From a virus (lineage: Duplodnaviria; Heunggongvirae; Uroviricota; Caudoviricetes), in IMG/VR virus record IMGVR_UViG_2675903661_000018: a stretch of DNA of 63,382 bases, one strand, 5' to 3'. The stretch's first letter is position 1; each line of letters starts with the position of its first letter. The position numbers are program-made. Below, piece after piece: positions 48,001 through 51,000 of the stretch.

Positions 48001-51000
48001 CGTACTGCGGAAAAGATAACCCTAAGCTGCCGCGAACCATCTAGTGAAGACAGTTTCCCTGTTTCAGTCGACACGTCGTTCATAGATGATAAAGACGAGA
48101 TCGCCATACTGTTTGATGCAATGAAAGAAAACAGGACAGTAAAAATCTTGGGAAGCTACACGATACGAGCAGGTGTAATAGAAAACGGAAACGCATCAAC
48201 CATCACTCGCCCATAACAGAAAATTTAACCCCGGCCCCTGCGCCGGGCTTTTCTTTGCATATCCCCTCCTGTTATCTGTCCCCTTAAAAAATAAATCACT
48301 TTAAAAATCAGTTAAGTAATAATTTTTCGCCCTAAAAAGCACTGGCGGTATTTACATGAAAATCACCGCAAGTTATATTTATTTCAAGCCAGAAACATCG
48401 CGCCCTTACACAGGGCTACATAAATCAGTCGTACGGCGCGACTTAACCCGCCGCAAAATGCTCTTTAACAATCTGGAGCTTTACAGCGTAAATGACCTGT
48501 TTAGACCCCTACACGTAAACGTGCTGTATCATCGGGTGCGATCCGGTCGATGAGAGAGTATCCCCGCGCGAGAGCGAGAACGGCGTGAGAACGGGCAACA
48601 CTGGCAGGAAGTTGGCGCTGACCAATACAGGGAATGTTTTGGGGTGTGGTGAAGGGTTCATGGACGGGAATATGTCGCACGTAAAGCGGCGAGGCCCGAG
48701 GGACTATTGCTGAAGATAAGTAGGCCGAATCGGGTCGAAATGGGTCTCCCACCTGCCACATCGCCAAAGCGTTTCTGAGAAAGGACGGTATTGACTGCGT
48801 GTGATGTCGGGGCTATATTTGGCAAACACCTTATAAAACGGGTGTCGGGATTAGGACCCCGCTGACAATCGAGGCGATACAGACGCGCCAGCGTCTTTTT
48901 TTGTATCGACATACACGCACATCTTATCAATGGTGGGCTGTATGGGGCCGACTTCGGTCGGGCTGGTTCCCTTGATTGCCAGTAGTCCTAACCCTGTACA
49001 GTCCACCGCCAGCGAGCTTAGGACCTCCTGCGGTGGTTCTCAATCACCAATCAAGGAGGCTGCCATTATGGCTACTATCCCTGCCCTTTCTCAACCTGAA
49101 ATCACCATTCAGAATGGTCGTGCCGTCACAACATCTGTTGCTATTGCAAATTTCTTTGACAAACGACACGAACGTGTAATTGATAAAGTTCGCAATCTGG
49201 AATGTTCGATTGAATTTACTGAACACAATTTTGTGTCGAGTAAATACACCGACTCAACCGGGCGCAAACTCCCAATGTACCAAATCACCAAAAACGGCTT
49301 CGTCTTCCTGGTGATGGGATTCACTGGTAAAAAAGCCGCTGCATTCAAGGAAGCCTACATTGCTGAATTCGATCGCATGGAAAAACAACTATGGGAACAG
49401 AAACAACTGGCCCTGTCTTCTCCTGCGATGAATATCAATTTCCCTTTATCGTGGTTTTCAGAGCATCACCCCTACGCCACGATGAACTATGTTGATCGCA
49501 AAGTTATCAGCCTTGATGCTTCCGTGCTCTTCGATATGCCAAGCCCAACTATGCGCATCCTCAATGAGCTACACAGCAAGGGCTATAACGTTGACGCCGC
49601 TGTCGCCGAATTTAACGCCTTCAAACATCTGACGGAAGAAATGCGCCGTAAATTGCTGGATATTTCCCGCACATCGGAAAAATCTTCCCGCTTTGGTTTC
49701 AACGTTAATCTTTAATTAAATCTCTCCCCGATTATATATCGGGGATTAAATTAAATATCTGGATTAATTAACCGGAGGATTTGTCATGCTCAAACCTCAC
49801 TACGGAACCGCATTAGTTTCTCGCGAGGAAATTAAACCCGGCACTGCAATTCTTTACAACGGGCGTTATTACATGGCGTCAGCTAACGTTAATAATGCAC
49901 TTTACGCACATTCACTGATTGAAAAAATTCGCATTATCTCAGATGCAATAGAAGTTTACCTGAACAATAAAGGCCAACCGTTAATCTCACCAGCCTGAAA
50001 GGAAATATCATGCTCAATCAAGAAATTAATATCAATGTAAAAAGCGTCATAACGCCAGCGAAAACGATAATGGGAGAAGTTTTTATGGATGATAAAATCA
50101 TCGCCTATTTTGTCGTCCTGCCTGATGAGGCTATTTCTGTTATTGATACGGAAGGCAATGTTATGTTTATCGCGGAACATCCAGAAGACATCGCATTACA
50201 GGCCGCTGCATATTTCTTTGCTAAAGAGCAGGAGGAAGAATGTAACTGCCCTGTCTGTCAGCTTTCCCGACAAATTAATTTAATGCATTAACCGGAATCA
50301 GGAGTTCCGCCATGAACGCATACCTCACCTGCGACCGCATAGAGGAGCGTCGCTGGGTTAATCAGCAAATTCAGGATGAAAAGGATAAATGGATTGATGA
50401 TCGGGCGCAGGAGCTTATCAGCATGTTCCCCGATAAACCATTGCTTATGAGCAGCCTTTTTTTACCCAAAGAAGCCCAGCTGGCACTCACTGGCGAAAAA
50501 GCTGAAGAGGCGTACAACGATTATATCTCAGCGATCGCCTATGCTCGGGCGGAAGAAGAATGGGAGAGAAAATTCTCCCCCTGTCCTTTCTGATTTTCAG
50601 GACCAAAAAAATGTTCGATATCGTTGAATTTGTTAAGCAGCAGGAGCGCTTTTTCTGCGAGGCATTAACTGAACCGACGCTGACATGGGCGAAGGAAAGT
50701 CAGTTTGCAATTCAGCAATTCCAGAAAAATGCCTTTCTGGCTGACACAGCACGGGCAAATCTGCCCAGCGCACAGAACGCTATCATCAATGTTGCCGCCA
50801 TCGGCATAACCCTGAACCCGGCCAGCAAGCTGGCGTATCTGGTCCCACGAAAAAAGGCTGTATGCCTGGATATCAGTTATATGGGGCTTCTGCATCTGGC
50901 ACAGGTCACAGGAGCCATTCAGTGGGGGCAATGCAAACTTGTTTACGAGAAGGACATTTACGAGTCCAACGGTATTGACTGCGCCCCCACGCACAAATAC

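Follow-up and report, generated by a model that had tools for sequence, protein, structure and literature searches.

The window analysed in this study is the whole 63,382-nucleotide stretch of viral DNA of IMG/VR record IMGVR_UViG_2675903661_000018 (Caudoviricetes), a complete Stx prophage of the Eru1 type (PA2/TL-2011c-like). The analysis concerns the gap of about 680 bp between its promoter pL and the gene for a Rha-family regulator, the position that is occupied by the N gene in lambdoid phages. This gap is most probably a mosaic of three parts: pL with its OL operators, the relic leader of a lost N gene, and an RNA module composed of IsrK and C4. The module, which is of the type known from the immI region of P1/P7 and the isrK locus of Gifsy-1, very likely stands where N was.

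An earlier note on this DNA, made from the sequence alone, had pointed to a near-consensus promoter followed by a strong terminator in the gap, and had offered a small RNA as one explanation. Both elements were confirmed (Table 1), and the small-RNA reading was borne out, the RNA belonging to a known family. A structure prediction and covariance search, which the note had proposed as a check, gave matches above the gathering scores for the Rfam models of both isrK and C4. The isrK model (RF01394) is matched over its full length (1-77 of 77) at 48826-48901 (76 nt) with 61.7 bits against a gathering score of 50, and its ends coincide with the predicted transcript ends at 48826 and 48901. As a class, consensus promoters (6 found, 6.9 expected) and terminators (7 found, 4.6 expected) occur in the region at about the level of chance. 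This particular pair is nevertheless not a chance occurrence, because the isrK model ends match it and the layout is kept in other divergent loci: the terminator is arranged in the same way in 11 of 11 loci, and a promoter-like sequence lies at the same distance in each of the seven loci for which the upstream flank was inspected. Inspection of the isrK promoter by eye did not reveal any sequence resembling a CI operator.

A C4-type antisense RNA follows downstream of IsrK, and its target sites lie in the rha leader, one of them on the ribosome-binding site of rha; these features had been missed in the earlier note. Both the minimum-energy and the centroid fold of C4 adopt the shape of the family, with a long outer stem and two hairpins (-43.9 kcal/mol, z = -4.5). 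Two segments of C4, the single-stranded a' and the recognition loop b', are each complementary to two sites. The a' segment is complementary to the TTAGGAC of IsrK (a1) and of the rha leader (a2), and b' is complementary to CAATCGAGG in IsrK (b1) and to CAATCAAGG in the rha leader (b2). The b2 site overlaps the Shine-Dalgarno sequence of rha. In the minimum-energy fold of 48826-49080, a1 and b1 of IsrK pair in cis with a' and b' of C4.

The same isrK-C4-antirepressor order was found in 10 further loci, from other Stx phages, the P1-like phage D6, nin-region copies and APSE-1, and together with the window these made up an alignment of 11 divergent loci. The a and b sequences differ among the loci, but within each locus all three copies change together. 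Cognate sites share exact complements that average approximately 7 nt (a) or 7-9 nt (b), compared with approximately 4-5 nt between non-cognate ones. For the C4 fold together with the a'-a2 and b'-b2 helices, 95.9% of the alignment cells are paired and 26 of 43 pairs show compensatory changes. The a1-a' and b1-b' helices reach 95.0%, with compensatory changes in 13 of 15 pairs. None of 500 shuffles attained either value, and slid controls gave 30-52% and 35-52%, respectively. Considered separately, the outer stem of C4 is 100% paired (8 of 17 pairs compensatory), all five pairs of hairpin 1 are compensatory, and the a'-a2 and b'-b2 helices are 88-93% paired with compensatory changes in most pairs. 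The distance from the end of b2 to the start codon is 7-12 nt in the seven loci in which it was measured. A matrix of duplex energies calculated with RNAduplex was also tried and was dropped as too blunt, since the conserved stems raise the non-cognate scores; the counts of exact complements and the column-wise covariation were used in its place.

Table 1. Features of the pL region and of the second antisense module, in window coordinates
Feature	Position	Strand	Remarks
Open reading frame next to cro	45770-46051	-	30-nt gap after cro
cro	46082-46321	-	Pfam Cro match, 4.8e-34
cI	46381-47094	+	
Intrinsic terminator	48230-48247	+	stem of six G-C pairs, CCCGGCCCCTGCGCCGGG, then T-rich tail
OL operators and pL promoter	48339-48379	+	TTTACA-17-TATATT at 48351-48379 (promoter scan)
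Hairpin GCCCT-TACAC-AGGGC	48402-48416	+	predicted to fold; initial transcribed region
Probable relic leader of lost N gene	48459-48776	+	301/318 identical (95%) to phi80 pL leader
boxA TGCTCTTTAACAA	48459-48471	+	homologous to annotated phi80 nutL boxA
"nutL core" ACACGTAAACGTGC	48511-48524	+	homologous to core annotated in phi80
isrK promoter TTGACT-17-TATATT	48791-48819	+	ends 7 nt ahead of isrK model start
IsrK small RNA (also c4-a1b1 element)	48826-48903	+	own intrinsic terminator: stem 48881-48896 and seven T
a1 TTAGGAC	48851-48857	+	in IsrK
b1 CAATCGAGG	48866-48874	+	in IsrK; one G-U with b'
C4-type antisense RNA	48926-49013	+	Rfam RF01695, 78.9 bits (gathering score 45), model 1-87/87
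b' recognition loop CCTTGATTG	48970-48978	+	in C4
a' single-stranded GTCCTAA	48985-48991	+	in C4
C4 target sites	49018-49059	+	rha leader
a2 TTAGGAC	49018-49024	+	complement of a'
b2 CAATCAAGG	49048-49056	+	complement of b'; overlaps Shine-Dalgarno AAGGAGG (49053-49059)
Rha-family regulator/antirepressor-like gene	49068-49715	+	Pfam Phage_pRha, 7e-29; first gene of pL operon
Promoter-like TTGACA-18-CATACT	57874-57903	+	
Short hairpin-plus-terminator RNA	downstream of 57874-57903	+	carries CTTCAAAG (57917-57924)
sRNA-Xcc1 (Rfam)	57995-58084	+	65.4 bits against 53; loop CTTTGAAG at 58049-58056

The C4 region can also be read as coding for an N-terminal "Ash" domain of Rha, with translation starting at ATG 48930 or, 12 nt further on, at ATG 48942. 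The open reading frame (ORF) 48930-49715 is indeed uninterrupted and shares the reading frame of rha, its 57 N-terminal residues match Pfam Phage_ASH (PF10554) with 32.3 bits against a cut-off of 26, and PGAP/RefSeq annotate a Rha of 257 amino acids in near-identical prophages. In Gifsy-1, moreover, the equivalent orf45 is translated (PMC4825925). Against this, the ORF that begins at the conserved AUG has lengths of 261, 166, 229, 39, 64, 14, and 15 amino acids in seven loci and shares the frame of the gene downstream in some of these loci only, while the C4 RNAs, with 88, 86, 85, and 87 nt, differ in length by non-multiples of three. The conserved entity is therefore the RNA, and the substitutions are compensatory for its stems. 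A strong Shine-Dalgarno sequence of its own precedes rha. A conserved protein domain in the C4 region is unlikely, and the coding explanation as a whole is considered improbable, even if the passage of ribosomes through ORF 48930 may matter by analogy with Gifsy-1.

The Phage_ASH match spans the translated C4 RNA gene and its target sites (48930-49100). In Stx2_14744 and Stx1_14744 (L004/L005, 672-1145), an annotated "regulatory protein/Ant" coding sequence runs through isrK, the terminator, and C4. An "Ash domain" has been reported for the Rha/Ash proteins of Stx phages (PMC8951638), and this domain is probably a translated RNA gene.

The evidence for the second part of the mosaic comes from the breakpoints of its homology to phages that possess N. 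The similarity to the phi80 pL leader, which includes the annotated boxA and core, ends 35 nt ahead of the phi80 N ATG, and the isrK promoter starts 15 nt past this breakpoint. Likewise, 48638-48769 is 92% identical to the leader of the 933W-type phage Stx2a_F451, and this homology stops 18 nt short of the ATG of an N gene with an arginine-rich start, MTRRTQFKGNSRSRRRER. Because both homologies break before the respective N start, the window appears to keep the untranslated N leader and to have lost the N coding sequence. With the latter cleanly replaced, nutL would be an orphan.

A different history had been offered in the earlier note, namely that the gap holds a decayed, frameshifted N pseudogene, of which the arginine-rich frame ARERERRENGQ would be the remnant. 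The gap is in the right position for such a gene, and the frame is present, as a stop-to-stop fragment of 32 codons (48554-48652) that, as had been remarked, has no in-frame start codon. However, the identical frame occurs in the phi80 leader, where it is bounded by stops, lies 245 nt upstream of the N ATG, and is out of frame with N; it is thus leader sequence and not a remnant of N. All three frames of 48386-49067 are broken by stops and leave no usable ORF, the short ORFs in this interval had no Pfam or PHROG family match, and a scan of small ORFs for arginine-rich N-termini yielded spurious frames only, in agreement with the original observation that no N-like ORF is present. Alignment of the gap to the pL regions of phi80 and of 933W-type phages, the latter another of the proposed checks, showed that only the leader is shared and no N coding sequence. 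A tblastn search of the whole window with the N proteins of phi80, of the 933W type, and of lambda gave no match at E <= 0.4, and so did not uncover an intact N elsewhere either. The phage stands as N-less, and the pseudogene explanation is effectively refuted.

The partner elements of N on the other side of the immunity region are likewise missing. Pattern searches of the window for boxA, the phi80 nut core, and a lambda-type boxB stem returned single copies and no nutR. The gap that follows cro had been judged too short for nutR and tR1, which agrees with the 30 nt found to the next ORF and with the lack of a second boxA or core. The interval from cro to Q, with the sole Q gene at 41064-41597 on the other strand, did not contain a convincing intrinsic terminator, and no tR1 was found.

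The leader might instead have kept a function. In this alternative, 48386-48790 would be a cis-acting RNA like the put sites of HK022, as the earlier note had suggested, or an N-independent boxA of the rrn kind, or a nutL site served in trans by the N protein of a co-resident prophage, and RNA polymerase would become resistant to termination across the ~680-nt untranslated stretch and the IsrK terminator. Transcripts from pL must pass this long untranslated region and a terminator without N, and every Eru1-type phage examined has retained the leader. The orphan boxA reads exactly TGCTCTTTAACAA in each Eru1-type locus checked, compared with TGCTTTTTAACAA in phi80 and HK225; the former is the rrn boxA consensus, and it is a matter of speculation that it could still recruit Nus factors. 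On the other hand, blastn of the gap against HK022, whose record carries no put annotation for direct comparison, found no similarity, and no second copy of the element exists downstream of pR, where the gap after cro is 30 nt. The fold of the leader is no more stable than that of shuffled sequences (z = -0.9), and a permissive Rfam scan of 48200-49200 returned only noise apart from isrK and C4. These results give no support to a put-like element, and the option was abandoned, although a divergent put could have escaped the comparison. The Eru1 phages are ~97-99% identical here, so that the conservation of the leader is uninformative on selection. Compared with the window and PA2-type phages, the TL-2011c- and O104:H4-type Eru1 phages have a 112-bp deletion (48647-48758) in the distal N leader (junction in TL-2011c at L011 1762-1770). 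At least the missing part would thus seem to be dispensable, and the deletion is a handy natural variant on whether the relic leader matters. Finally, rrn-type complexes act on Rho-dependent termination and are not known to act on intrinsic terminators. Taken together, continued antitermination by the leader appears unlikely.

The hairpin that the earlier note had compared to boxB is present and is the sole exact match to GCCCTN5AGGGC across the window. It did not hold up as part of a canonical nut site, since its position, 42 nt upstream of boxA, reverses the order of the elements in such a site, and its loop is not GNRA-like. The surrounding segment 48385-48458 occurs only in Eru1-type Stx phages and is thus specific to the immunity group.

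With regard to how the IsrK/C4 module may work, the isrK promoter, which has no evident CI operator, would produce the 76-nt IsrK, most transcripts stopping at its own terminator. Transcripts that read through, together with those from pL, would continue into C4 and the rha leader. The mature c4 RNA of P1 is processed from a longer precursor by RNase P, and C4 may be processed in a comparable manner. Its a' and b' segments would then pair with a2 and b2 and block the translation of Rha, because b2 extends into the Shine-Dalgarno sequence. Judging from P1 and P4, the pairing probably also promotes premature termination. With its decoy copies a1 and b1, IsrK could sequester C4, acting in cis when both lie on the same long transcript and in trans when IsrK is present as the short RNA, and this would switch Rha on. 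The C-terminal half of Rha matches PHROGs of the "anti-repressor" type, and Rha may act as an antirepressor.

Several observations weigh against this reading of the module. With the c4-a1b1 model (RF03163) the score is just 17 bits, short of the gathering score of 46.7, although the overlapping isrK model passes, so that the RNA counts as a member of isrK only. In b1 a G-U pair replaces an A-U pair, which limits uninterrupted Watson-Crick pairing to 5 nt at most. No strong intrinsic terminator precedes that of IsrK in the pL operon, and further good ones follow near 58.8 and 61.1 kb; the model gives no route by which pL transcripts pass the IsrK terminator without N, which leaves their presumed read-through unexplained. 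The published frameworks also disagree, as c4 is a repressor in P1 whereas IsrK is an activator in Gifsy-1, acting via the upstream orf45. Since the orf45 equivalent of the window is fused in frame to rha, neither mechanism is simply transferable. Expression data for this phage were not found.

The closest relative in organization is the immI region of P1/P7, in which, as Citron and Schuster are said to have described in 1990, c4 antisense RNA controls icd-ant. The two regions share the order of a1/b1, C4 with a' and b', a2/b2 at the ribosome-binding site of the next gene, and an antirepressor-type gene, as well as the fold of C4; this module is also present in the P1-like phage D6. Both the c4 and the c4-a1b1 motif have been catalogued (Weinberg et al. 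2010, PMC2864571). In P1/P7 two segments of the c4 RNA pair with targets located upstream (a1, b1) and downstream (a2, b2) on the transcript from which c4 itself derives. Unlike immI, the window has no icd gene, and the targeted ribosome-binding site belongs directly to the Rha-family gene. Its module is located not in the immunity region of a plasmid prophage but directly downstream of a lambdoid pL, in the place of N, its promoter lacks an evident operator for the primary repressor, and its a1b1 element is a terminated small RNA, IsrK.

The isrK-orf45(STnc1160)-anrP locus of Salmonella Gifsy-1 (Hershko-Shalev et al. 2016, PMC4825925) shares with the window an IsrK transcribed from a promoter of its own and ended by a leaky terminator, a structured RNA/ORF in which a second AUG follows 12 nt after the first, and an antirepressor-like gene. 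The fold predicted for the window brings the central portion of IsrK into pairing with the 3' portion of the element downstream, resembling "structure A" of that study (PMC4825925). Hfq binding and trans-activation of downstream translation count among the traits of the IsrK family. In contrast to Gifsy-1, the orf45 equivalent of the window lacks a stop codon and continues in frame into rha, which has a strong Shine-Dalgarno sequence of its own, and the upstream region contains cI, a 341-residue ORF, and pL but no Q-like antQ. A further resemblance, based on description only, is to the immunity system of P4 (CI RNA, seqA/seqC), where a small processed RNA pairs with upstream and downstream copies of its target and gates the early operon (PMC4825925); the corresponding control of termination in the window would be conjectural. 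With lambda and phi80, finally, the window has the pL/OL layout in common and, in the case of phi80, the 95% identical leader, but it lacks N, nutR, and tR1, and its nut site is an orphan.

The first part of the mosaic had already been described as lambda-like, and this was upheld by the promoter scan and by operator half-sites resembling those of lambda, with GCACTGGCGGTATTTAC at 48339-48355 and AATCACCGCAAGTTATA at 48361-48377. The OL half-sites are ATCACCGCAAG and CACTGGCGGTA, and a similar ACACCGCAGATAT is found in the cI-cro intergenic region. The orientation of cI (plus strand) and cro (minus strand) means that transcription from pL runs rightward along the plus strand. Just upstream of OL/pL, the terminator at 48230-48247 closes the transcription unit of cI and the 341-residue ORF. 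The latter (47191-48216, plus strand; phrog_6191) lies between cI and pL, in the position of rexAB. In its place PA2, TL-2011c, and ECP19-598 carry a methyltransferase and a PstI-family restriction endonuclease; the slot is a variable one for accessory ("moron") genes. The 341-residue ORF may be a defence gene, a function for which searches with Pfam and PADLOC gave no match and thus no support.

On the other side of cro, the adjacent ORF encodes 93 residues without a Pfam match, belongs to a PHROG of unknown function (phrog_852), and has an arginine-rich stretch, GNRARRSANTRLR, within its C-terminal third. One phage record gives the name "CII transcriptional activator" to an ORF in the corresponding position. 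The Rfam small RNA STnc100 occurs as a tandem pair (38760-38973 and 39035-39246, minus strand; 198 and 139 bits) just downstream of the putative stxA and stxB genes (39609-40565 and 39329-39598, minus strand), which were assigned by size and position only.

The assignment of the window to the Eru1 type agrees with its replication genes, which encode a DEAD/DEAH helicase of 506 residues and ORFs of 323 and 149 residues, in lengths and order matching the Eru1A-C proteins (PMC8044961). A query of 810 bp (48258-49067) matched PA2, VT2phi_272, ArgO145, and related Stx phages over its full length with 96-97.5% identity. PA2, VT2phi_272, and ArgO145 are assigned to Oslovirus, Sepvirinae. The same query was found over at least 80% of its length in 128 complete E. 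coli genomes.

A further antisense module, built on the three-site logic of the first, was observed at 57874-58128 (plus strand). The loop CTTTGAAG of its sRNA-Xcc1 RNA is complementary to CTTCAAAG both in the short RNA upstream (57917-57924) and at 58109-58116, where CTTCAAAG is fused to the Shine-Dalgarno sequence AAGGAGG of an AntA/AntB antirepressor gene (ATG at 58126; PF08346, 7e-28). In TL-2011c (L011 2860-2943) an RNA of the sRNA-Xcc1 type is found directly ahead of the "anti-repressor" gene. Given this three-site complementarity at an antirepressor Shine-Dalgarno sequence, phage members of sRNA-Xcc1 look like antirepressor regulators of the C4 type. Rha (49068-49715) and the AntA-family protein (58126-58764) have unrelated N-terminal domains, but their C-terminal ~115 residues are 73% identical. 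Two differently guarded genes thus carry the same presumed effector domain.

The RNA families, the class of mechanism, and the N-less status of Eru1 phages have been published previously; the lambda proteins N, CII, and CIII have no homologues in Eru1 phages (Llarena et al. 2021, PMC8044961). Since catalogued elements account for the region, further work on it as a novel class of RNA or as a pseudogene of N is not warranted. The novelty lies in the clean exchange of the N gene for an antirepressor cassette gated by RNA, with an orphan nutL left behind. In the literature, descriptions of an orphan phi80-type nutL and N leader in Eru1 phages, or of the replacement of N by an IsrK/C4-gated Rha cassette as the first pL gene, were not found, and nothing specific was found on IsrK or C4 in Stx, O157, or TL-2011c phages. 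In genome annotations of these phages, which are of medical importance, the RNAs are left unmarked or are translated, giving rise to "hypothetical proteins," over-long versions of Rha, and the Pfam "Ash domain."

Eru1 lysogens are approximately eight logs less stable than 933W lysogens, with a ~10^8-fold higher spontaneous induction (PMC8044961). It is conceivable, if doubtful at present, that Eru1-type Stx phages, the O104:H4 and O103:H25 outbreak phages among them, have exchanged the N/nutL switch at pL for one built from the IsrK decoy, C4, and the IsrK terminator, with the Rha-type antirepressor as its first output and the sRNA-Xcc1-guarded paralogue as its second, and that the balance among these RNAs, and not the replication module, sets the ~10^8-fold higher spontaneous induction and hence the output of toxin. 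The relevance of the module would grow only if it contributes to the instability of Eru1 lysogens. In these highly unstable lysogens of high virulence, the first gene released from pL is antirepressor-like and would be under the control of small RNAs, which provides a lead on their spontaneous induction.

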